A DNA stretch of 64,000 nucleotides, from contig CANPDB010000003.1 of NCBI GenBank assembly GCA_947572725.1, positions 2,296 through 66,295 of the forward strand, given 5' to 3'. This DNA comes from an uncultured Clostridium sp. Lineage in GTDB: Bacteria > Bacillota > Clostridia > TANB77 > CAG-508. Under the pieces are notes generated by a model. The model was not told where the DNA came from. It saw only the letters and a list, made by a program, of their open reading frames with translations, and made no database searches. This document shows positions 6,031-51,939 of the stretch, one piece after another (the stretch's first letter is position 1; each line of letters begins with the position of its first letter). The translations under genes were made by a program, and so were the position numbers.

Positions 6031-6335
6031 TATAATTTAGATTTAAAATTATCTACTCGCTCCCAGGAGTTTATATTTTAATATTTTTTCGTTATCCCCA
6101 TTCTAAAAATACAAAACCAAGATTTTCTAAACAAGCTTGCTTGTAAGAAAATATAAATTTTGCATAATTAATTTCTACGTCAAGTGCATAAATGCACTTT
6201 CCTAGAACTTAAAAACCTAACAAAAGTTCATAGAACTTTTGAGGATTTTTGAACGGTCCCCACAATTTCACTTCAAAATATTAAAATATAGAACTCCTTC
6301 GCGCTATTTTAAATGTTTTGATTCTAAATTATAAC
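6031..6335. repeat. nested-hairpin repeat, family 1 (CTCCCA...CGGTCCCCAC), copy A with its flanking palindrome
   Basis: The 6053-6315 core aligns with copies at 38712-38857, 22780-22937 and 48896-49036 (reverse). The outer arms GGAGTTTATATTTTAATATTTT and AAAATATTAAAATATAGAACTCC pair. The flanks TATAATTTAGA and TCTAAATTATA are also inverted. Confidence 0.85.
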
Positions 6336-7097: not shown

Positions 7098-8471
7098 ATG
7101 AATAAATTAGTAGATTGGAAAAATAGGTTAAAAAAAGGGCATATGTTAAGTGTAATTTGTGCACTTTTAATTATTGTAGCTATATTAGGTGTTATTTTAT
7201 ATAAAAAGCAAAGAGAATATAGACAAGCATCTGAAAATAGTTATAATATGGCATTTTATGAATTAGTAGATTATGTACAAAACGTGGAAACATATTTAGC
7301 GAAATCGTTAATTTCTACAACTCCTGAACATGGAGCAGAAACTTTAACAAATTTATGGAGAGAAGCTAATCTTGCACAAAGCTATTTAAGTATGTTACCA
7401 ATAGAAAGTCAAGAACTAGCAAATACAGAGAAGTTTCTAAATCAGGTAAGTGATTATAGTTATTCATTATCAAGAAAGAATATTTATAATGAAAGTCTGT
7501 CAGATGAAGACTTAAAAAATTTAAAAGATTTATATGGATATAGTGTAGAATTAGAAAATACTTTAAATCAACTATCAGAAGATTTAAATACAGGAAGACT
7601 AGAATGGGGAGAATTAACTAAAAAAGGAAATATAGCATTTGCACAGCAAGTAGATAATATATCAAAAGAGAGTTTTAGTAATTTGGAAGAAAATTTCCAC
7701 GAGTATTCAGGATTAATTTATGATGGAGCATTTTCAGAACATATTACAAGTAATGAGGCAAAAGGTTTAACAGGAGAAGACATAAGCGAAGAACAAGCAA
7801 AAGAAAAGGCAGAAAATTTAATAGGAAAAGAAAATATAAAAGAAATATCAAACTTAGGATATTCAGAAAACGCAACTATTCCAGTATATGATTTTTCAAT
7901 AACAAATAATAATGATGAGTCAATAAATGTATCAATTTCGAAAAAAGGTGGACACATTGTATATATGAATTCAAACAGAGATGTAAATGCAGAAATGATA
8001 TCACAAGAAAAAGCAAATGAGAAAGGTAAAGAGTATTTAACACAAAAGGGATTTCCTAATATGAAAGAGACATATTATTTAAAACAAGAGGGAATAGTAA
8101 CAATTAATTATGCTTATACACAAAATAATGTAATTGTATATTCTGATTTAATAAAAGTAAAGGTTGCATTAGACAATGGGGAAGTCTTAGGGATAGAAAC
8201 AACAGGTTATCTAAATAATCACCAAGAAAGAGATACTAAAAATGTGAAAATTACTAAAGAACAGGCAAAACGAAATTTAAATAAAGAATTAACTATAGAA
8301 AGTGAAGGAATGGCAATTATTCCAACAGAATGGAAAACAGAAATACTTTGTTACGAATTTAAAGGAAGAGTAGAAGAAAAAGAATTTTTAGTTTATATTA
8401 ATGCGGAAAATGGAAGAGAAGAAGATATTTTAGTTATTACAAATACTCCAAATGGTACACTTACTATGTAA
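7098..8471 (+). CDS. ypeB: germination protein YpeB
   Basis: Start moved to MNKLVDW (RBS AAAGGAAAG); the track start at 7029 reads through the repeat. N-terminal TM helix and C-terminal PepSY-like repeats. Conserved sleB-ypeB pairing. Confidence 0.8.
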   Translation: MNKLVDWKNRLKKGHMLSVICALLIIVAILGVILYKKQREYRQASENSYNMAFYELVDYVQNVETYLAKSLISTTPEHGAETLTNLWREANLAQSYLSMLPIESQELANTEKFLNQVSDYSYSLSRKNIYNESLSDEDLKNLKDLYGYSVELENTLNQLSEDLNTGRLEWGELTKKGNIAFAQQVDNISKESFSNLEENFHEYSGLIYDGAFSEHITSNEAKGLTGEDISEEQAKEKAENLIGKENIKEISNLGYSENATIPVYDFSITNNNDESINVSISKKGGHIVYMNSNRDVNAEMISQEKANEKGKEYLTQKGFPNMKETYYLKQEGIVTINYAYTQNNVIVYSDLIKVKVALDNGEVLGIETTGYLNNHQERDTKNVKITKEQAKRNLNKELTIESEGMAIIPTEWKTEILCYEFKGRVEEKEFLVYINAENGREEDILVITNTPNGTLTM

Positions 8472-8755
8472 GTTGCCAAGAGGGACGGGTTTTTTTGGCA
8501 ACTTTTGTTTATCAATTAGAATAAAATAAAAAATTCTAAAATCTGAAAAAAGTGCATTGAAAGTAATTAAATTAGAAATTATTAATTTGGTTTATGGAAA
8601 TAGTTTATTTTTAATGAAAGGGTGCCATAAACCAAATTTAAAATTTCTATGAAAATTAGCTTGAACAAGCATTTTTGATAATTTTAGAATTATTTATTTT
8701 TATTATATATAAATAACGGATAAAGTTGCCCAAAAGACCCGTCCCTTTTGGCAAC
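8472..8755. repeat. family 2 paired-hairpin element, about 285-bp imperfect palindrome
   Basis: GTTGCCAAGAGGGACGGGTTTTTTTGGCAAC (8472-8502) and GTTGCCCAAAAGACCCGTCCCTTTTGGCAAC (8725-8755) are inverted copies. The interior has further inverted pairs (AATTCTAAAAT / ATTTTAGAATT; TTTGGTTTATGG / CCATAAACCAAA). Confidence 0.85.
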
Positions 8756-8765
8756 TTTTAGCATT

Positions 8766-20616: not shown

Positions 20617-20649
20617 AAGCTAATATACTATAATTTTAATTAGCTACAT

Positions 20650-20692
20650 GTTCCCAGAAGTTTATATTTTAATATTTTTTTCGAGCTATTTA
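20650..20692. repeat. internally deleted family 1 repeat
   Basis: TTCCCAGAAGTTTATATTTTAATATTTTTTTCGAGCTATTTA joins the family 1 left end directly to the right-end TTCGCGCTATTTA-like motif. Confidence 0.6.
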
Positions 20693-20743
20693 GAGTAGAT
20701 AATAATTTTAAAAATGGTTCATTCTATTTATACTTAGGAAGGA

Positions 20744-22714: not shown

Positions 22715-22738
22715 ATTATTTAGTATCAATTTTATTTA

Positions 22739-22976
22739 GCAATCAATTAATTTTCTTTTAGTTAATTATATTTTTTAAACTACTCACTCCCAGAGGTTTA
22801 TAATTATATATTTTTTCACTGCCCCAACCTAAAAATTCTAAAGAAAAGTTTTTTAAACTTTTCTAAGAATTTTTGGATGGTCACCCCGGAGTCGTTCAAA
22901 AGGTATATAATTATAAACCTCTTCGCGCTATTTAAATTTTAACTTATAATTAACTAAAAGAAAATTAATCGATTGC
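22739..22976. repeat. nested-hairpin repeat family 1, copy C, inside a 38-bp flanking inverted repeat
   Basis: Core 22780-22937. The outer stem AGAGGTTTATAATTATATA / TATATAATTATAAACCTCT is perfect. The flanks GCAATCAATTAATTTTCTTTTAGTTAATTATA and its reverse complement bound the whole unit. Confidence 0.85.
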
Positions 22977-23052
22977 TATATTAATATTGAAAAATATGCC
23001 AATTTGTGGTAATATTAACAAAGTAAAAACAAAAAGGTAAAGGAGAATTTTT

Positions 23053-24111: not shown

Positions 24112-24120
24112 ATAATAAAT

Positions 24121-24333
24121 GTGACAAAAGGGGCGTCCCTTTTTGTCACATAAAAATTATATATTTAAAATGTTATTATATTTTTTATTTGCAACTCCCA
24201 ACTGCACACAGTCTGTAAATTCTTAACAGACTGTAGCTTGTCGGTCCCCACGAAATGTTGCTTCATAAAGAAATATAATAACATTTTATAAAAAACAAAT
24301 TTGTGTGACAAAAAAGGGCGCCCCTTTTGTCAC
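24121..24333. repeat. composite palindrome: family 2 hairpin pair enclosing a minimal CTCCCA...GGTCCCCAC unit
   Basis: GTGACAAAAGGGGCGTCCCTTTTTGTCAC (24121-24149) and GTGACAAAAAAGGGCGCCCCTTTTGTCAC (24305-24333) are inverted. Inner core is GCAACTCCCAACTGC-hairpin-AGCTTGTCGGTCCCCACGAAATGTTGC (24191-24261). Confidence 0.85.
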
Positions 24334-24347
24334 AGGAGGTAAAAAAC

Positions 24348-26930: not shown

Positions 26931-27025
26931 AAATCATAGATAAAAAGTTCTAAAAAATGATTAAAAAATTGGAAATTTTTAGAAAATTGTTTGACAAATG
27001 CAAAAGAATACGTTACTATTTAATT

Positions 27026-27105
27026 ACAAAATAAATGAACTTTGAATGTCGCTAGTATTCAAATCATAACAGTGTGTGTACCACGAATACACATGCTATT
27101 TTTTG
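27026..27105 (+). ncRNA. candidate sRNA, copy 1 (paralog of 29701-29787)
   Basis: Promoter TTGACA-17-TACTAT at 26991-27019. Hairpin 1 at 27041-27063. Terminator hairpin AGTGTGTGTA-CCACGAA-TACACATGCT plus T-run. The promoter through +15 is near-identical to copy 2. Confidence 0.45.
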
Positions 27106-27294
27106 TCAAAAATAGAGCAGACCACGAATATGCTCTACGACTAAATACAGCTAATTAGTCTTAACTTTGTTGTCATCTTGCATTTGCTTATGTTGTTGTT
27201 CTAATTGTTGTTGTAATATAATGTTTTTTTAAATGAATAAAATAAAGCTCTTTAAAATAAACTGTATATAAGAATATTTAAAGGAGTTTTTTTA

Positions 27295-27750
27295 GTGGAA
27301 GAAATATTAAAAACAACATTATTAGGTTTATTTTTTGGAACATTTGGTACTACATTAGGAGGAATTATAGGAGTTATTATAAAAAAACACTCAAATAAAT
27401 TTTTGAGTTCAATTTTATCATTTGCATCAGGACTAATGATGGCAGTAATATGTTTTGATTTAATTCCTGAGGCATTAGGAATTAGCAGTATTTTTAATAT
27501 AATAGTTGGAATAGTAGTTGGTATAATTGCAATGATATTTTGTGATATATTAGTTGAAAGAAAATTCAGTAATACAAAAAGATTTGAAGGAGAAAAGAAT
27601 TCATTATTAAAAACAGGCATTATTGTATCAATTGGTTTGGCAATTCATAATTTTCCAGAAGGATTAGCAATTGGATCTGGATTTGAAGCTTCAATGAAAT
27701 TGGGACTAAGTTTAGCTTTAGCAATTTGCTTGCATGATATACCAGAAGGA
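27295..27750 (+). pseudogene. zupT: ZIP family metal transporter (ZupT-like), 5-prime part, interrupted by an integrated element
   Basis: GTG start after AAGGAG. Motifs HNFPEGLAIG and HDIPEG. The frame leaves transporter sequence right after HDIPEG and stops 11 codons later. The rest of the protein (ISMAVPM...GELIPES...) resumes at 34871. Confidence 0.85.
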
Positions 27751-28182
27751 AGATTCCAAAGTAGACACCAAGTGAAATATGCTTGATAAACGATTTGAAT
27801 TTAAATTAAATTTTAAATAGAAAATGCATACGTTATTAAAATAAGTAAAGTATGTATTTTTTTTGCTCAAAATAATTAGATAAATGAAGAATTTTTTGTA
27901 TTAAAAGTATAAAATTTTTGATAATTTGTAAAGTAACAAAATTTGATAGGTATCGAAATGAGCAAACCATTGAAAACAAAAGAGTTTATAATATTGATTT
28001 GATAGTTTTGTGAGTGGAGGTAAGTAGACGATAGCGTATGCTATCGAATATCTTACCATAAGGGACAATTTAGTGATAAATTATAAAAAGAATTTTAAGT
28101 GAACAAATGAAAAGGAATAGAAGATAAAAAAGTTGATTTTTTATTGATTTTAATGTTAATATATATACTAGGAGATTTTTAA

Positions 28183-29598: not shown

Positions 29599-29665
29599 TT
29601 ATCCATCCTTATATTCTAATTGCAAATTTGGTACAGAAAATATTGGAAAATTCTAGAAATTTGAT

Positions 29666-29694
29666 TTGACAAATGCAAAAGAATATGTTATTAT
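29666..29694 (+). promoter_or_regulatory. consensus-like sigma-A promoter of the candidate sRNA
   Basis: TTGACA, 17-nt spacer, TATTAT. Duplicated at 26991-27019. Confidence 0.6.
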
Positions 29695-29700
29695 TTAATT

Positions 29701-38681: not shown

Positions 38682-38711
38682 TAGATACAATGAATATAAA
38701 AAATATTTATT

Positions 38712-38857
38712 TACTCCTAGAAGTTCATATTTTGTATTTTTACGTTATCCCCATTCTAAAAATCCTAACAAAAGTTCTATGAACTTTTGAGGATTTTTGA
38801 ACGGTCCCCACAATTTCACTTCAAAATAAAAATATGAACTTCTTCGCGCTATTTAAA
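38712..38857. repeat. nested-hairpin repeat family 1, copy B (compact form)
   Basis: Same order of blocks as copy A but without A's 105-bp insert. Outer stem is GAAGTTCATATTTT / AAAATATGAACTTC. Confidence 0.85.
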
Positions 38858-40317: not shown

Positions 40318-40560
40318 ATATATTATGACAATAAATGTATAAATGTAATATAAAACTAAAGTAAACGTAATATATGAAATGATATTGGCGAAATCCTTAT
40401 ATCCTTAGGAAAGCAAAAGATATGAATTTTATATCTAATAATATGCATATTGACATTGAACTAAAAAGAAGATTAAATAGAATTAGGAAATTAAAATATA
40501 CCGAGATAAATTATGTTTAAAATAGTTCAAAATAAGAGGAATTTTTTAGGAGGAAAGATT

Positions 40561-43500
40561 ATGGAGGAAAAACGAAAGAAAAAAATTGTTGGAGTAGCAG
40601 TTATAAGTGGTGTAATATTAGTTAGTGTTACAGTGGGAACTATTAGATTAGCTGCAAAGAGAGATGAAACAGAGATAAAAACATATGCTACAACAAACAT
40701 AGCAAACTACAATTCAACTCCAACTCAAACTATTGATGGAATAAGATACAATTTAGATGCAAGTAATAAAACTGCAACTGCAATGTATCCAGATAATATT
40801 AGTGCAATAGCTCAAATGCCAAGCGATGCTTCATTAAATGGAGTAATAGGATATAGTAATAGTTCTGGAGTGTGGATAGATATACCACAAGTTGTTACAT
40901 ATAATAATACTGAATATACAGTAACTGCTATCGGAGAAGGAGTACAAAGTTTTATATCAACACCATTAGCATCTCTTATAAGCTCAGTTTCAAATAAAAA
41001 TTTATCAATAATACTACCAAGAACTGTAAGAAATGTAAGTGCAAGTGCATTTGTTTTAAGTAGTGGAACATCTGCGATGGATAGTATAAAAATTATTAAC
41101 TTATCTAATGAAACAACATATGGAAGTTATCAATTATCTTCAAAAATAAAATTTTATGCTGTTCCTGGAAGCGGAATAGAAAAATTAACTACGCAAGCAA
41201 CTAGCTTATATAGTTATACTAAATCAGGAAGTAATGGTAATATTACAATAACTGGATTTAATAATGGAGTATTTGATAACATACCAACACTTGCAAAAGT
41301 AAATATACAACTTCCAGATTTTATATATGAGAATGGAAGTTCTACTCAAAAAGGAATTAAATTCACAGTAAACAAAATATCTAGTTATGCATTCAATGAT
41401 AATGATAGATTAAAAAACATAATAATTCCCGCTAATATAAAAAGTATTGAAACAGAAGCATTTGGAAATTGTGATAATGTAGAAATAGTTAAATTTTTAG
41501 GAAAAGATAAGAATATAAGTGACAATGCATTTTTAAGAACAAATCCATCTAATGTATATTACATTGGAAATGGAACAGTAGGAGATTATGTCTCTAGGTA
41601 TATGTCAACAGTAAGCAAAACTCCTATGAGCTTAAATTCTTTCGAAGTAATGCAATCACCAACTAGGACAAGTTATCAAAGAGGAGAAAGTTATGATGGT
41701 AGAGGTGGAATATACAAGTTAGTATATACTGGAACAGATGGAAATATTAATACTTGTTATTTAGCAGGAGAATCCAGTGATATTACATATTCTCCAAGTA
41801 CGTTTAATACGACAGGAACACAATATGTTTCAGCAACATATGAAGGAAAGACTATTGGCAATTTAGTAGCAATTGTAAGTGATACATCGCAATCTCATGT
41901 GACGATACAAACAAATCAAAATATTACTATAGAAGTAGGAAAAACTCAAGAAATTACTCCATCAGTAATTGGTGCATCAGACACTAGATTGGATTGGAGT
42001 AGCGGAAATCCTAACATTTTAAGTGTAAGTGGAGGAGATAATTCAGCATCTATAACAGGACTGAATACTGGGACAACTACTTTAACTATACGATTACGTA
42101 GCGATAGCAATACATATATTATATGTAAGGTAACAGTAGTGGATATAGAAGGAAAAACTATAAAGATGAACCAAAAGAATGTAATACTTGATGCTGGTGA
42201 ACAAAGGCGATTAAGCTGTACCACAGAACCAAGTGATGCTACAGTTACATGGGAAATATATGATAAAGATAAAAAAACAACAATAGATTCTGCAGGATTA
42301 TTAACAGCGGGTAATGAATACGAAGATGGAGTAGTTAATGCGATAATAAATAAAGATGATTTCGATAAATATGCTACTGATACTTGTAAATATTTTGTGG
42401 GTAGCAGATTGCGAATGTTTAAAAATATATCAAAAACGGAAGATATGTTTAATCAAGAAAGGATAGTTAATAGAACAGGAACACTAACAACAGATGTACC
42501 AACAAGGGAAGGATATAAATTTAAAGGTTGGGCATTAGGAAAAGATAAAAACAAAAAAGTTGTAGGACCAGGGGAAAGATATAATTTTTCAAAAGATGAT
42601 ATAAATATTATAGGAGGATCATTTGCAGCTATAGATTTATATGCTATATGGCAAAATGTAGAATTAGACAATAATACATATACTATGGAAATTGGAAAAA
42701 CAGCTCAAGTAAATGCAAAAGTATTAGTGAATGAAATACAAAATACAAATGAAAGAGTAACTTATGAAATTGCTAATACAGATATAGCTACAATAAATAG
42801 CAATGGCTTAATAACTGGTAAAAAAGCTGGAACAACAACTGTAAAGGTAAAAGATACCTTAGGTAATGAAGTAATAGCAAAAGTACGAGTAGATGAGCCA
42901 ACAGTAACAAGAATAGCAATAACAGCACCAACAAAAAAAGAATACCTTAAAGGAGAATCATTAAATCTTGAAGGTGGAAAAATAAAAGTATTTTATAGCA
43001 ATGATACAGAAAAAGAAATACCATTAACAGAAATAAGTGATAAGATATCAGGGTACAATGCAAATATTACAGGAACACAAACAATAACAGTAACATATGA
43101 TGGACAATCCAATACGTTTAATGTAGAAGTTAAAGAACCAATAATTCATGTAAATAATGTTACATTAAATAAAACATCTTTAAATATAGAAGTAGGACAA
43201 ACAGATAAACTAGAAGCAACAATAAATCCAGAGAATGCATCAAATAAGAATGTAGAATATAGTAGTAGTAATCCAGAAATAGTAACAGTAGAACAAGATG
43301 GTACAATAAGAGGAATAAAAGCAGGAACAGCAACAATAACAGTAACAACAGAAGATGGAAATCACACAGCTACATGTAATGTTGCCGTAGAAGTGCCAAT
43401 AATCAGCGTAGAAGGCATTGAAATAACAAATAAGCCTACAACTAATATGAATATAGGCAATGAGTATGAACTAAACTATGAGATAAGACCAGAAAATGCA

Positions 43501-44832
43501 ACAGATAAAAATGTAACTTGGTCATCAACAGATGAAAATGTAGTATATGTAGATAGTAACACAAATAAATTAATTGCTAATGGAGAAGGAACAGCAACAA
43601 TTACAATAACTACTAGAGATGGAAATTATACAGATTCATTTGAGGTTACAGTAAATCCAGAAATAATTCATGTAGACAGTATTACATTAGATAAATCTTC
43701 ATTAGAAATAAAAGTTGAAGAAACATACAAATTAGAAGCTACTATAAACCCAGAGAATGCATCAAACAAGAATATAACATATAGTAGTAGTAACACAGAA
43801 GTAGCAACTGTAGATGAAAATGGAACAGTAACAGGAATATCAAAAGGAACAGCAACAATAACAGTAACAACACAAGATGGAGCTAAAACAGCTACATGTA
43901 ATGTGACTGTTAAAGAAAAGGCAAGACCTGTAATAACCAATGTTGAAGCTAAAATAGAAGATGATATAAACTATATTGTATATATATCTATAACAGATGA
44001 ATCTGGAGTAAAATCTGTAAAAGTTGCAGATGATGATATAACATTAAATAAAACAGATGATGGAAGATATTATTTTAAACCAAATGAAAATGGAACTTAT
44101 ACAATAAAAGTTATAAATAATGATGGAAATTCTATAACATATAATTACGAAGAAAAAGGCTTAAAGGAACAAGCAACAGCAGATGCAATAACAGATTCAC
44201 AATCAAATAACGTAGTTGGAGTATCTCCAAAAACAAATCATAAAGTTAGTAAAATAACAGTTGAAGGAAAAGAAATTAATTTAAGACCAAAAGATGGAAA
44301 ATACTTATTTACAACGGAAAAAAATGGTACATATAATATTGTTATAACTTACGAAGATGGTGAAACTGAAAGATTAGTATATGAAGAAACCAGATTTAAA
44401 ACTAATGGGGATAATGATGACGACAACAAGGATGACGACAACAAGGGAGACAACGACAACAAGGATGACGACAACAAGGGAGACAACGGAAACAAGGATG
44501 ACGACAACAAAGGAGACAACGGAAATAAGGATGATAACAACAAGGGAGACAATGGAAATAAGGGTGATAACAACAAAGGAGACAATGATAATAAAGGTAA
44601 CAATAGTGTAAACAATGGAAATAGTAGCAACAATAATAGTAGTAATGGAAGCAACAATAGTGGAAATAAAATTAGCAATAATAGTAGTAATAGTGCAAAG
44701 ACAGGAACAAAAACAGATACAAGTACAGCATTAAAAACATTACCTAAAACAGGTACTATAATAAGTCAAGTATTAGCAACAATTACAGGTGTGGCTACAG
44801 CGATAATAGCATGGTTTAAAATGAAAAAATAA
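40561..44832 (+). CDS. LPXTG-anchored surface protein with BspA-type LRR, Listeria-Bacteroides repeat and multiple Big_2 domains
   Basis: Start at MEEKRKKK after AGGAGG. LRR_5-like units (KISSYAFNDNDRLKNIIIPANIKSIETEAFGNC). Flg_new-like TREGYKFKGWALG...LYAIW. Repeated Big_2 units (VTLNKTSLNIEVGQTDKLEATINPENASNKN). C-terminal LPKTG, TM helix and KMKK. Confidence 0.85.
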   Translation: MEEKRKKKIVGVAVISGVILVSVTVGTIRLAAKRDETEIKTYATTNIANYNSTPTQTIDGIRYNLDASNKTATAMYPDNISAIAQMPSDASLNGVIGYSNSSGVWIDIPQVVTYNNTEYTVTAIGEGVQSFISTPLASLISSVSNKNLSIILPRTVRNVSASAFVLSSGTSAMDSIKIINLSNETTYGSYQLSSKIKFYAVPGSGIEKLTTQATSLYSYTKSGSNGNITITGFNNGVFDNIPTLAKVNIQLPDFIYENGSSTQKGIKFTVNKISSYAFNDNDRLKNIIIPANIKSIETEAFGNCDNVEIVKFLGKDKNISDNAFLRTNPSNVYYIGNGTVGDYVSRYMSTVSKTPMSLNSFEVMQSPTRTSYQRGESYDGRGGIYKLVYTGTDGNINTCYLAGESSDITYSPSTFNTTGTQYVSATYEGKTIGNLVAIVSDTSQSHVTIQTNQNITIEVGKTQEITPSVIGASDTRLDWSSGNPNILSVSGGDNSASITGLNTGTTTLTIRLRSDSNTYIICKVTVVDIEGKTIKMNQKNVILDAGEQRRLSCTTEPSDATVTWEIYDKDKKTTIDSAGLLTAGNEYEDGVVNAIINKDDFDKYATDTCKYFVGSRLRMFKNISKTEDMFNQERIVNRTGTLTTDVPTREGYKFKGWALGKDKNKKVVGPGERYNFSKDDINIIGGSFAAIDLYAIWQNVELDNNTYTMEIGKTAQVNAKVLVNEIQNTNERVTYEIANTDIATINSNGLITGKKAGTTTVKVKDTLGNEVIAKVRVDEPTVTRIAITAPTKKEYLKGESLNLEGGKIKVFYSNDTEKEIPLTEISDKISGYNANITGTQTITVTYDGQSNTFNVEVKEPIIHVNNVTLNKTSLNIEVGQTDKLEATINPENASNKNVEYSSSNPEIVTVEQDGTIRGIKAGTATITVTTEDGNHTATCNVAVEVPIISVEGIEITNKPTTNMNIGNEYELNYEIRPENATDKNVTWSSTDENVVYVDSNTNKLIANGEGTATITITTRDGNYTDSFEVTVNPEIIHVDSITLDKSSLEIKVEETYKLEATINPENASNKNITYSSSNTEVATVDENGTVTGISKGTATITVTTQDGAKTATCNVTVKEKARPVITNVEAKIEDDINYIVYISITDESGVKSVKVADDDITLNKTDDGRYYFKPNENGTYTIKVINNDGNSITYNYEEKGLKEQATADAITDSQSNNVVGVSPKTNHKVSKITVEGKEINLRPKDGKYLFTTEKNGTYNIVITYEDGETERLVYEETRFKTNGDNDDDNKDDDNKGDNDNKDDDNKGDNGNKDDDNKGDNGNKDDNNKGDNGNKGDNNKGDNDNKGNNSVNNGNSSNNNSSNGSNNSGNKISNNSSNSAKTGTKTDTSTALKTLPKTGTIISQVLATITGVATAIIAWFKMKK
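44431..44595 (+). repeat. tandem 33-nt (11-aa) coding repeat, 5 copies
   Basis: GATGACGACAACAAGGGAGACAACGRAAACAAG units encoding DDDNKGDNxNK in the stalk preceding the LPKTG signal. Confidence 0.85.
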
Positions 44833-48868: not shown

Positions 48869-48895
48869 AAATTGTAATTCAATCTATTAAAATAT

Positions 48896-49036
48896 TAGCG
48901 CGAATGATGTTATATATTTTATTTTTTGAGTGGTTCCAGGGTGACCGTTTTAGAATATGTTTGAACGAATGTGAAATACATATTCTTAAATGGGGCAACG
49001 AAAAAAAATACAAATATATAACATTATGGGAGCGGA
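48896..49036. repeat. nested-hairpin repeat family 1, copy D (reverse orientation), inside the mreC-mreD spacer
   Basis: The reverse complement reads CCGCTCCCA-outer stem-TTTTTCGTTGCCCCATTT-inner hairpin-AAACGGTCACCC...-outer stem-TTCGCGCTA, matching copies A-C block for block. Confidence 0.8.
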
Positions 49037-49111
49037 AATTTATAGATTAACTTTAATATGACAAATAGAAGGCGGAAATTTATAGATTAGTTATAAGATA
49101 ACAAATAAAAG
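49032..49111 (+). repeat. tandem duplication, 2 x 40 bp
   Basis: GCGGAAATTTATAGATTAACTTTAATATGACAAATAGAAG and GCGGAAATTTATAGATTAGTTATAAGATAACAAATAAAAG, directly upstream of the mreD RBS. Confidence 0.8.
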
Positions 49112-49681: not shown

Positions 49682-51799
49682 TTGGCAAAAAATACGAAGA
49701 ATATAAGTAAAAGTAATATTAATTTAAGATTTAATATTTTAACAGTATTAACATATATAGTAGGAATTATACTAATTGCCAGACTATTTAATCTTCAAAT
49801 AGTGCATGGTGCTGAGTATAGGGAAGGATCTAATACAAGACTTACAAGAGAAAGTGTTTTAGAGGCATCAAGAGGTTCAATAATAGACAAAACAGGAACA
49901 ACCTTAGTAAATTCAAAAATGGAATTTTCTTTAGAAATGTATAAAAGTAAAGTTGATACTGAAGTTTTAAACCAATCAATTTTGAATATGGTAAATATAT
50001 TAGAAAAATATGAACTTGATTATGTGGATTCTCTACCAATAAAAGTGGAACCTTTTGAATATAAAATTTCTGAAAAAGAATTAGAAAATTGGAAAAAGGC
50101 AAATAACTTAGAAAATGACTTATCAGCAGAGCAGGCTTTTTACAAGTTAAAAGATAAATACAAAATTAAGAATGATGATATACAAGAAACAAGAAAGATT
50201 ATGACCTTAAGATATGAATTATCTCAAAAGGGATATAGTAGCACTAAAGCTGTTAAAATAGCTGGAAATATATCAAGAGAAGCTGTTGCAGAATTTAGTG
50301 AAAGTTCAGAAAAATTTGCAGGTATTAACATTGTAGTGCAACCTATAAGACAATATACTTCTGGAAACTTAGCATCACACATTTTAGGATATGCGGGAAA
50401 AATAAGTAGTGAAGAGTATGAAAAAAGGAAAAGTACTTACGGCAGTAATGACCTGATAGGAAAAACTGGAATTGAATATGTATTTGAAGAATATCTAAAA
50501 GGAAAAAACGGAACAAAACAAATCGACATGGCCGTTGATGGAACAACAACAGCGGAATATGTTTCACAAGAAGCAATAGCAGGCTCAGATATTGTATTAA
50601 CAATAGATGCTAATTTACAACACATAGCAGAAAATGCACTTGCATCTAACATTCAAAAAATATCTAGTGGAGGATTTGGACGAGCATATGATGCTAAAGC
50701 TGGTGCTTGCGTAGTTATGAATGTTAACTCAGGAGAAGTATTAGCAATGGCAAGTTATCCAGATTACAATCCAGAAGATTTTGTTGGTGGAATAAGTAAT
50801 GAAGCATGGAATAAATATACAAATAATTCAGCTAAACCACTAGTAGATAAAGCAATACAAAATTCATATTCACCAGGTTCAACATTTAAGATGATAACAG
50901 CTATAGCAGGACTAGAATCAGGAGCAATAAATTTAAATACAAAAATCAATGATACAGGTGTATATAAAAAATATGGAATTTCAATGAATTGTTGGTATTA
51001 TACAGATTACCATAGAGGACACGGATACTTAGATGTATCAGGTGCAATTGAAAAGTCATGTAACTATTTCTTCTATGAAACAGGAGATAGAATGGGAATT
51101 GACAAATTAGCAGAATTTGCTAGATATTTTGGACTTGGTGGAAAAACAGGAGTAGAGCTACAAGGAGAAACAGGAGGAGTATTAGCAAGTAGAGAAACAA
51201 AAAGTCAAATGCATCCAGATGATCCAAACTGGAATCCAGGAAACACTCTAAATGCTACAATAGGACAAGGAGATAATGAATTCAGCCCAATACAAATGGC
51301 CAGATACATAAGTATGCTCGCAAATGGAGGACACAAAATCGATGTTAGTATAGTAAAAACAATAAGGAATGCAGATGGGTCAGAGGTATCTCGAGAAGAT
51401 ATTAATAAATTTGTAAATAAAAAATTAGGGCTAGAGGAAGATACCACAGAAGAACTACAAATAAATCAAAATCATTTAAAGGCTGTATTACAAGGTATGA
51501 AATCTGTTACAAGTGATACAGAAGGAACAGCATACGTTAGATTCAAGGATTTTGATATAAGTGTAGGTGGTAAAACAGGTTCAGCAGAAGCACCAAATAA
51601 TCAAGTACATGCATGGTTTGTTGGATTTGCGCCATTTGAAAATCCTGAAATAGCAATAGTTGTTATGGTAGAAAATGGAGGTCATGGAAACTATACAGCA
51701 GAAGTAGTTAGGGATATTATGGCTGAGTACTTTGGAATGAATACTCAAAATATAGAAGAAAATATGAATGCAACACCATTTATAGAAATAATGCAATAG
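49682..51799 (+). CDS. mrdA: penicillin-binding protein 2 (class B transpeptidase)
   Basis: TTG start. N-terminal TM helix. Motifs STFK (GSTFKMIT), SCN, KTGS. Confidence 0.9.
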   Translation: MAKNTKNISKSNINLRFNILTVLTYIVGIILIARLFNLQIVHGAEYREGSNTRLTRESVLEASRGSIIDKTGTTLVNSKMEFSLEMYKSKVDTEVLNQSILNMVNILEKYELDYVDSLPIKVEPFEYKISEKELENWKKANNLENDLSAEQAFYKLKDKYKIKNDDIQETRKIMTLRYELSQKGYSSTKAVKIAGNISREAVAEFSESSEKFAGINIVVQPIRQYTSGNLASHILGYAGKISSEEYEKRKSTYGSNDLIGKTGIEYVFEEYLKGKNGTKQIDMAVDGTTTAEYVSQEAIAGSDIVLTIDANLQHIAENALASNIQKISSGGFGRAYDAKAGACVVMNVNSGEVLAMASYPDYNPEDFVGGISNEAWNKYTNNSAKPLVDKAIQNSYSPGSTFKMITAIAGLESGAINLNTKINDTGVYKKYGISMNCWYYTDYHRGHGYLDVSGAIEKSCNYFFYETGDRMGIDKLAEFARYFGLGGKTGVELQGETGGVLASRETKSQMHPDDPNWNPGNTLNATIGQGDNEFSPIQMARYISMLANGGHKIDVSIVKTIRNADGSEVSREDINKFVNKKLGLEEDTTEELQINQNHLKAVLQGMKSVTSDTEGTAYVRFKDFDISVGGKTGSAEAPNNQVHAWFVGFAPFENPEIAIVVMVENGGHGNYTAEVVRDIMAEYFGMNTQNIEENMNATPFIEIMQ

Positions 51800-51915
51800 G
51801 TTGCCAACGGTTCCGGGTTTTTTTGGCAACTTGTAATACATATATTTATTATTTATAGCTGAATATAAGTTTAATGTTGTAATAGTTGCCAAAAAAACCC
51901 GGAACCGTTGGCAAC
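51800..51915. repeat. family 2 paired-hairpin element with perfect 31-bp inverted ends
   Basis: GTTGCCAACGGTTCCGGGTTTTTTTGGCAAC (51800-51830) and its exact reverse complement (51885-51915). The 54-bp spacer begins and ends with TTGTAATA. Confidence 0.9.
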
Positions 51916-51939
51916 CTCTTAGCAAGGAAAGGATGTAAA

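Follow-up and report, generated by a model that had tools for sequence, protein, structure and literature searches.

The DNA described here is a 64-kb stretch of chromosomal DNA from an uncultured, spore-forming member of the Clostridia (contig CANPDB010000003.1; 27% GC), referred to below as the window, and within this genome the analysis was confined to it. Its host genes include those for the signal recognition particle (SRP) RNA, dnaX, recR, sleB/ypeB, murein genes, sbcCD, prfA, uvrD/pcrA and mreBCD. Between the genes lie the members of family 1, a genuine family of intergenic DNA repeats of about 150 bases (140-165 bp) found in uncultured low-GC gut Clostridia. Four full copies (A to D), one internally deleted remnant and two core-only relatives are present, i.e. 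seven family-related sites in 64 kb (Table 1). An earlier note on this DNA had reported at least four full copies sharing one order of blocks. Sequence reading and alignment place all four where that note put them and in that order, and the remnant and the two relatives are to be added to its count.

Table 1. Members of family 1 in the window and the features that interrupt or flank them
Feature	Position	Strand	Evidence
Copy A, full, C-type subfamily, with a 105-bp insert	6055..6310	+	sequence, alignment, covariance-model halves 6057-6169 and 6175-6308
Unique insert, 105 bp, within the 5' arm of inner helix P2 of copy A	6111..6215	+	gap versus B, C, D
Core-only relative 2, with a ~170-bp multi-hairpin insert in the P2 loop	14720..15006	+	direct sequence reading
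Internally deleted remnant	20640..20695	+	nhmmer match 20637-20680, sequence, covariance model 15 bits
Locus-specific AT-rich palindrome around copy B, ~32 bp per arm	22735..22978	.	self-reverse-complement match 22726-22990
Copy B, full, CACTGCCCC / GGTCACCCCGGAGTCG subfamily	22782..22934	+	covariance model 132.6 bits; fold z = -8.5
Two inverted hairpins TGTGACAAAAGGGGCG.CCCTTTTTGTCACA at 24120-24150 and 24304-24334, flanking core-only relative 1	24120..24334	.	
Core-only relative 1	24168..24287	+	sequence, pattern match, covariance model 37.3 bits over model positions 9-136
Copy C, full	38709..38855	+	covariance model 127.1 bits
Copy D, full, between mreC and mreD	48892..49037	-	covariance model 122.3 bits

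All of the copies are intergenic. Copy D separates mreC from mreD, the remnant lies between sbcD and sbcC, copy B between sbcC and prfA, and copy A occupies a divergent promoter region. Four blocks, all on the same strand, are conserved: GCTCCCA, CCCCA, GGTCNCC and TTCGCGCTA. The last of these occurs exactly four times in the window, confined to the four full copies, and the joint pattern CCCCA..GGTCNCC..TTCGCGCTA matches copies B, C and D against an expectation of 0.00 in dinucleotide shuffles of the window. An nhmmer profile built from the copies returns those of the window with E-values of 1e-35 to 1e-43, while a covariance model trained on 13 copies gives B, C and D scores of 122-133 bits for the strand named in Table 1 and of 14-32 bits for the opposite one.

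The earlier note had described copy A as copy B plus 105 bp, inserted exactly at the base of the inner hairpin. The 105-bp segment is real, lies near that base and forms two hairpins, but it starts six bases into the 5' arm of the inner helix (P2), after AAAAAT; moreover, the nearest relative of copy A is copy C (83-88% identity), B belonging to another subfamily. The segment has no second copy in the window or in the fetched loci of other genomes, its only match among the fetched loci being the identical site in the same-species contig L127. Whole copy A still folds as a nested hairpin (z = -7.3).

In the remnant, the left block GTTCCCAG and the 5' arm of the outer stem (P1) are fused directly to TTCGAGCTATTT. 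Core-only relative 1 has P1, CTCCCAAC, P2 and GTCGGTCCCCAC and lacks the outer blocks; of the two hairpins that flank it, the second was scored as terminator-like. Core-only relative 2 is recognised by a GGTCCCCAC match at 14967 and a weak nhmmer match at 14966-14998. The flanks of copy B gave an inverted-repeat score of 25 (z = 11.9). Beside copy D, on the minus strand, an 18-bp direct repeat (TAATCTATAAATTTCCGC) is found at 49032-49049 and, 40 bp away on the outer side, again at 49072-49089. It is made up of the bases with which the left end of D begins and of 11 nt of flank, and its duplication may be what a second copy left behind when it was deleted.

Fold and compensatory changes

The consensus fold, obtained from the covariance model and from pair counts, is nested in the order P0-P1-P1b-P2. 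P0 is a 3-bp closing helix (CGC/GCG), next to which stands an asymmetric internal loop (TCCCA / TTC); P1, the outer stem, comprises 20-25 AT-rich bp; the junction between P1 and P2 holds a 2-bp helix (GT/AC, AC/GT or GC/GC); and P2, the inner hairpin, is closed by two C of CCCCA paired with the GG of CGGTC. The C-rich blocks, which the earlier note took to be single-stranded, are thus not fully so. Its proposal that they are recognition sites has fared better: distant copies have kept no other sequence than these short blocks, a pattern that fits such a role. The blocks stand at near-constant distances of 29-33 nt and 33-36 nt. Several subfamilies keep an extrahelical G or GG some 7 bp from the base of P1, in its 3' arm. 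The stems are stable, with z from -5 to -8.5.

Pairing was counted in two alignments, each measure being compared with 500 shuffles. In a MAFFT alignment of P0 and P1 from 30 copies, 93.8% of the cells are paired versus 72% after shuffling and the double-change cells number 118 versus 36; the observed values were reached by none of the 500 shuffles on four measures and by one on the fifth. The second alignment, of all helices in 36 matches, was fitted to the covariance model and is biased toward it; here 95.3% of the cells are paired versus 68.6%, with 306 double changes versus 87, and again 0 of 500 shuffles attained these values. When the 3' partners are shifted by 1-3 columns pairing drops to 37-66% in both alignments. 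Changes on both sides are found in every variable helix, only the CC/GG closing P2 being invariant. The stem sequence is free to vary provided that Watson-Crick complementarity persists, and the identity of the family lies in its folded shape.

The kind of pairing is that of DNA. G-U pairs account for about 23 of the 1202 cells (~2%) of the model-fitted alignment, and the mismatches in P1, among some 660 positions, are G.T in eight cases and A.C in seven. Since selection on an RNA fold would accept G.U yet not A.C, their equal rarity is a property of DNA on both strands, the arms being held Watson-Crick complementary at the DNA level and not in the manner of an RNA.

A scan of copy B and of the remnant revealed no promoter-like or terminator-like site, the only calls between 20500 and 24400 falling at the TGTGACAAAAGGGG hairpin; the view of the earlier note that the blocks are not simple terminators is borne out, in that no terminator-like call lies inside the element. 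The G-rich strand (GGGGUGACCGCC) resembles a T-box sequence, a likeness judged coincidental because the Rfam T-box model gives no match and the genomic setting does not suit a T-box.

Copies from one genome are near-identical in their interior, and their differences sit in the 8-10 bp of P1 that adjoin the outer blocks. Lapin-033 (5 copies), the contigs of JAEEGL (4), CAKPPF (4) and copies A and C of the window all show this hypervariable box; 27 of its 80 columns are variable versus 33 of 453 elsewhere (Fisher p = 1.8e-9). The changes in it are compensated, ten variable pair positions showing 23 Watson-Crick pair types and two unpaired cells only. In CAKPPF, for example, four 335-bp repeats that are ~98% identical differ by TTG/CAA, TCG/CGA and TCA/TGA. 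Copying of the box from the target was considered and rejected, 7-mers of the box being found in the 80-nt flanks for 3 of 30 copies versus 3.5 expected. The box may drift freely while the remainder is needed for propagation, as in the spacers of REPINs, or one arm may be rewritten from the other by hairpin-templated copying.

Insertion, decay and distribution

Three sister species, syntenic and compact, were reached through their homologues of MreC (83-89% identity) and PrfA (96-97% identity). Other carrier genomes were set aside as a source of empty sites, having almost no synteny with the window. The spacer between mreC and mreD is 25 and 14 nt in the sister species versus ~250 nt in the window, that between sbcD and sbcC 9 nt versus 127 nt, that between sbcC and prfA 116-131 nt, with an ordinary terminator, versus 338 nt, and that from prfA to the next gene 63-88 nt versus 216 nt. 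No copy was detected by the covariance model in over 50 kb of syntenic sister-species DNA, and the copies of the window are therefore insertions. They have altered the layout of the genome: four spacers are 130-240 nt longer than in the sister species, and the mreC|mreD operon junction is split.

The earlier note had also proposed a comparison of strains for presence and absence. The sister species do lack the copies, but within the species deletions are the only variants. B, C and D are fixed: each same-species contig spanning one of their sites carries the copy, and D is present in all same-species contigs. In L097 a 33-bp deletion in D has removed the GCGCG block, and in L126 only the left block and 5' arm of A remain, as in the remnant of the window. 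Short-read assemblies of the same species break within copies, several contigs ending within copy C, so that the family has a practical effect on assembly.

The changes seen within the species in the mreC-mreD spacer (L095, L096, L098, L099, L097) cluster in the TAGCGCGAA block of D (48896-48904), which shows the point changes TAGTGCGAA and TAGCGCAAA and the 33-bp deletion versus one single-nucleotide polymorphism in the other ~260 nt. All three deletion variants (L097, L126 and the remnant) remove or disrupt the right-end block. These right-end changes could mark a hotspot at a methylated CpG or an active cleavage site.

Reverse complementarity is lacking between the two ends, (C)CGCTCCCAG and CTTCGCGCTA, and no conserved terminal inverted repeats were seen; the arms of P1 that pair differ in sequence between copies. 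Flanking direct repeats (z above 3) accompany only 2 of 27 copies, without target duplication. The bases on the left flank vary by subfamily (..CTAC, ..TAAT, others) and a single motif was not found. The C-rich strand lies on the G-rich replication strand, as judged from GC skew, in 21 of 31 cases (p = 0.07) and is co-directional with the flanking genes in ~13 of 17 clear cases (p = 0.05).

Association with palindromes is a further property of the family, 10 of 27 copies being centred in larger locus-specific inverted repeats of up to ~30 bp per arm. To the earlier note, elements seemed to land inside the hairpins of earlier elements. The nesting itself is real, as the inserts of copy A and of core-only relative 2 and the palindromes around the copies attest, but landing in earlier elements is one reading of it, insertion into ordinary hairpins being another, and at one site the flanking hairpin has been duplicated in inverted form and not split. 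That site follows prfA: the sister species L147 has there one terminator-like hairpin, TTTGCCAAAAAGGCCCGGCCCTTTTGGCAAA, and in the window such a hairpin is present twice, inverted, on either side of core-only relative 1. The cause could be either insertion into hairpins or the outward growth or duplication of palindromes. The idea that the core was inserted into an older small hairpin carrying the outer blocks was dropped, no uninterrupted CTCCCAG..CTTCGCGCTA hairpin having been found in the window or the fetched loci. REPIN-like doublets, in which two inverted terminator-like hairpins enclose a spacer of 54-220 bp, are found in the window at 8470-8757 and 51795-51925, with the hairpin GTTGCCAA...TTGGCAAC, and at 24120-24334 with the hairpin TGTGACAAAAGGGGCG.CCCTTTTTGTCACA. 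The L033 copy (2387) sits between the arms of such a terminator-like hairpin.

Beyond the window, prokaryotic genomes were scanned with a pattern search (one genome per species), which gave at least 94 stretches, and a metagenome collection was searched with a stricter pattern, which gave 17. Scoring with a hidden Markov model (HMM; nhmmer) left 12 of the 17 metagenome stretches as real and led to the removal of ~75 of the 94 genome stretches listed as chance matches in GC-rich genomes. Among the matches listed, the true ones all come from assemblies of low-GC uncultured Clostridia of the rabbit and human gut, with at least nine carrier assemblies besides the window species, several of them multi-copy. 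The covariance model retrieves 32 copies in the fetched loci outside the window. One family with a nested-hairpin plan, as the earlier note had it, thus reaches well beyond the window in genomes, metagenomes and covariance-model matches. Phage records, plasmid records and viral contigs held no real match; the lone pattern match in a viral contig was a chance one, in GC-rich DNA beside a tRNA.

The spread is patchy, elements that are 75-86% identical occurring in genomes whose flanking genes can barely be aligned. The proteins encoded beside them are essentially unrelated from copy to copy, which, with the absence of copies from the sister species, rules out a conserved cis-regulator of particular genes. 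Rfam 15, searched at gathering level with the whole window and by E-value with copy B and the L012 composite repeat (described below), yielded for the repeats only weak noise from microRNA precursors, so that these are not fragments of a known non-coding RNA family. Nothing relevant turned up in the literature on the motif strings or on Firmicute repeats of a comparable kind.

In a Clostridia genome from the Hadza gut (L012 885-1216, also L021, L032 and L069) the element forms the left half of a 335-bp composite repeat, the copies of which are 96-98% identical and are bounded by a 12-bp inverted repeat (AAATTGTAATTT / AAATTACAATTT). The composite also contains a further module of nested hairpins, which has a core rich in GC (CGGCCTGACAGCCCTTTGAGGCGGGGAATACCCGTTAGCCTGGAAGGCC) and no Rfam match. 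Strings like AAATTGTAA lie beside copies C and D of the window, and a version with one mismatch, AAATTATAA, beside copy A.

What the repeats may be

Family 1 behaves as a small genomic parasite would and is, with a probability of roughly 0.55, a non-autonomous mobile DNA element, the folded single strand of which is read by an enzyme encoded elsewhere. We infer the mechanism and the nature of the enzyme by analogy with the RAYT/IS200-type HUH transposases, which act on the hairpins of REPs and IS ends, and with the integron integrases, which act on attC. Such an enzyme, acting in trans, would recognise the folded strand and move the element. The recognition sequence would persist because competent copies alone would leave descendants, while stem positions, chiefly the 8-10 bp at the base of P1, would drift and perfect pairing would be restored by selection or by hairpin-templated correction. 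Elements would land preferentially in or beside existing hairpins and decay afterwards through deletions between short repeats. Effects on neighbouring genes, such as wider spacing in operons and RNA hairpins in transcripts, would be a by-product.

Several observations weigh against this interpretation. No transposase or recombinase is linked to any copy in the window and the fetched loci. Transposase domains are absent from the window open reading frames (ORFs) examined and from the Pfam labels of the syntenic loci, and tblastn with IS608 TnpA and Escherichia coli RAYT queries found nothing in the window or the fetched DNA. The statement in the earlier note that the window has no transposase thus holds for the ORFs examined, a split serine recombinase (30606-32178) lying in an unrelated island; its suggestion of a RAYT/IS200-IS605-type or other transposase led to none in the window or the fetched DNA. 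No longer, gene-carrying version with the same ends (blocks 300-6000 bp apart) was seen in the low-GC DNA searched, the single pair of left and right blocks at such a distance proving to be two separate copies in L033. The contigs that span the sites show no precise presence/absence polymorphism within the species, and AT-rich flanks, together with the divergence of the sister species, leave the boundaries of the insertions uncertain at single-base resolution. The orientation bias is mild, and IS200/IS605 elements are known for a much stronger one. The invariance of the four blocks is in part an effect of ascertainment, the search patterns having demanded them, and is to be read with the mitigating facts that the two patterns demanded different subsets and that the blocks are also present in copies found by the HMM or the covariance model only. 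Finally, a function of each copy at the level of the host could explain just as well why the interior is strongly conserved next to neutral positions that are saturated.

Among known systems, REPINs consist of conserved ends and a hairpin-forming spacer in which compensatory changes are common (Bertels and Rainey 2011, PMC3116915), and their spacers are free to drift while the rest serves propagation (PMC3116915). Like the RAYT-mobilised REPINs and REPs, family 1 is extragenic, multi-copy and non-coding, measures ~100-150 bp and can form a long hairpin as single-stranded DNA; short conserved blocks surround a region whose pairing survives through compensatory changes, and there are decay products comparable to singlets and remnants. 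Unlike a REPIN, it does not consist of two inverted REP units, its left half being unrelated to the reverse complement of the right; its conserved blocks are all C-rich on one strand; and it possesses an extra inner hairpin and a structured junction. Neither a conserved GTAG-like 5' tetranucleotide in the family nor a RAYT in the DNA searched was seen.

Elements derived from IS200/IS605 (PATEs) share with family 1 their asymmetric ends, the lack of terminal inverted repeats and target duplications, and a mild replication-strand bias; recognition by HUH enzymes of a hairpin shape with extrahelical bases and short unpaired motifs is likewise comparable. Their hairpins, however, are two and separate, in subterminal positions, whereas that of family 1 is a hairpin nested in a hairpin with a 3-bp closing helix, and they insert 3' of a fixed tetra- or pentanucleotide, whereas the left flanks here show no fixed motif. 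The DNA searched yielded neither TnpA nor TnpB, and there was no Rfam match to IS605-orfB RNAs.

The attC sites of integrons resemble family 1 in that the folded single strand is conserved and the sequence variable, with short conserved boxes at the base, extrahelical bases and a variable terminal structure that can hold large insertions. The RYYYAAC / GTTRRRY boxes are absent from family 1, which ends in GCTCCCA and TTCGCGCTA; its copies stand singly among housekeeping genes and not in cassette arrays; and no IntI is present. Integrons are not known from this phylum. Miniature inverted-repeat transposable elements (MITEs) and similar repeats (Correia/NEMIS, RUP, BOX, Rickettsia palindromic elements) are also small, non-coding, intergenic and expanded in particular lineages, form hairpins when transcribed and may sit within operons. 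They differ in having sequence-conserved terminal inverted repeats that match a parent IS, and target-site duplications; the arms of family 1 vary, and neither a duplication nor a parent IS was found in the low-GC DNA searched. In defining features family 1 thus departs from all four kinds, MITEs, REPINs, IS200/IS605 derivatives and attC sites. In its working it is nearest to the last three, in which shape is likewise constant and sequence free, and this shared hallmark points to a structure-reading enzyme.

A structured RNA transcribed from the C-rich strand, with the repeats as its genes or cis-acting modules, is a rather unlikely alternative. Its two or three C-rich motifs (UCCCA, CCCCA, UCCCCAC) could pair with G-rich sequences of the Shine-Dalgarno type, by analogy with the C-rich loops of Firmicute small RNAs such as RsaE/RoxS, or else bind an RNA-binding protein, and selection on the fold would account for the covariation of the stems. 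Strong covariation in all helices would suit an RNA, as would the retention of unpaired motifs across distant genomes and the ~13 of 17 unidirectional contexts in which the C-rich strand runs with its neighbours. CCCCA is displayed in one subfamily by the loop of a small local hairpin whose stem covaries (ACGAA..TTCGT in some copies, TGCGC..GCGCA in others), a U.G pair on the C-rich strand recurs at the base of P2 in four independent copies, and the copies look individually conserved while loop and box positions are saturated. The pairing speaks the other way, G-U being confined to ~2% of the cells and, in P1, no commoner than A.C, unlike in RNA families. Nor is an RNA favoured by the scan of copy B, without promoter-like or terminator-like signals, by the occurrence of both orientations, including D in antisense within the mreCD operon, by the status of the copies as lineage-specific insertions beside unrelated genes, or by the lack of a matching Rfam family.

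An unlikely reading is that the repeats are substrates of an undescribed recombination system of the Clostridia which would read folded single-stranded DNA in an attC-like or HUH-like way. Its recognition code would be its own: three same-strand blocks of the YCCCCA type and TTCGCGCTA, the nested hairpin and the extrahelical G. Insertion would favour hairpins, and the box would arise by hairpin-templated copying during transposition or repair and not by slow drift.

Quite improbable is a role as DNA sites domesticated by the host, at which a chromosomal protein concerned with nucleoid organisation, replication, repair or sporulation would bind the C-rich blocks on extruded or single-stranded hairpins; the family would then owe its upkeep to that function and not to transposition. 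DNA-type pairing, copies that are each conserved and fixed within the species, the high density of seven family-related sites in 64 kb and the mild bias to one replication strand are all compatible with it. In the sister species, close as they are, over 50 kb of syntenic DNA is free of the family, which makes an essential chromosomal function unlikely, and the patchy distribution across Clostridia and the decay by deletion without apparent penalty tell against such sites as well; a candidate binding protein was not identified.

Plain long intergenic hairpins (terminators, insulators or stabilisers of mRNA 3' ends), alike only through AT-rich composition and convergent structure, are very improbable and as a full explanation largely refuted: most copies do lie a few to ~100 nt 3' of a stop codon, the stems are long and stable, and ordinary terminator hairpins fill two of the same spacers in the sister species, but four specific blocks recur at fixed spacing across genomes far above chance, a GC-rich stem with a T-run and terminator-like calls are lacking inside the element, both orientations occur, and copy A stands in a divergent promoter region. 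A terminator or stabiliser effect as a by-product is possible.

Small structured repeats have been well studied in Proteobacteria (REP/REPIN, ERIC, Correia) and hardly at all in uncultured gut Clostridia. Family 1 marks particular lineages there, and its covariance model can be used to count copies and to look for genes that co-occur with them as partners. A new structure-reading recombinase, if one could be linked to the family, would add greatly to its significance.

Other features of the window

The bacterial small SRP RNA (1515-1610, 63.9 bits) is the sole Rfam family to reach gathering level in the window. Upstream of sbcD, at 17502-19028, lies a lone type IV secretion coupling protein (TraG/VirD4-like), likewise present in the sister species L144 and L147; since the arrangement is conserved there, this is apparently what survives of an old conjugative element.

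An island of ~7 kb, unrelated to the repeats, interrupts the gene for a ZIP transporter, the N-terminal portion of which lies at 27295-27786 and the C-terminal portion at 34793-35158; in the sister species the gene is intact and directly precedes uvrD. The island carries a large serine recombinase, itself split into ORFs 30606-31232 (Resolvase) and 31369-32178 (Recombinase and zinc ribbon), a Fic protein (32247-33185) and several ORFs without a Pfam match. A direct repeat of 76% identity (26963-27142 / 29637-29828) is found near it.

In a single sister-species contig (L143 86-1351), a group II intron reverse transcriptase (RVT_1 and GIIM) stands where other contigs have prfA and the metallophosphatase gene. 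Internal tandem repeats, 66-77% identical at the DNA level and unrelated to the hairpin repeats, are present in the window at 43071-43904 and 60128-61103. The latter lie beyond the last listed ORF, and the former are within a 1439-aa ORF (40513-44832), the same-species counterpart of which has LRR and Big_2 domains.

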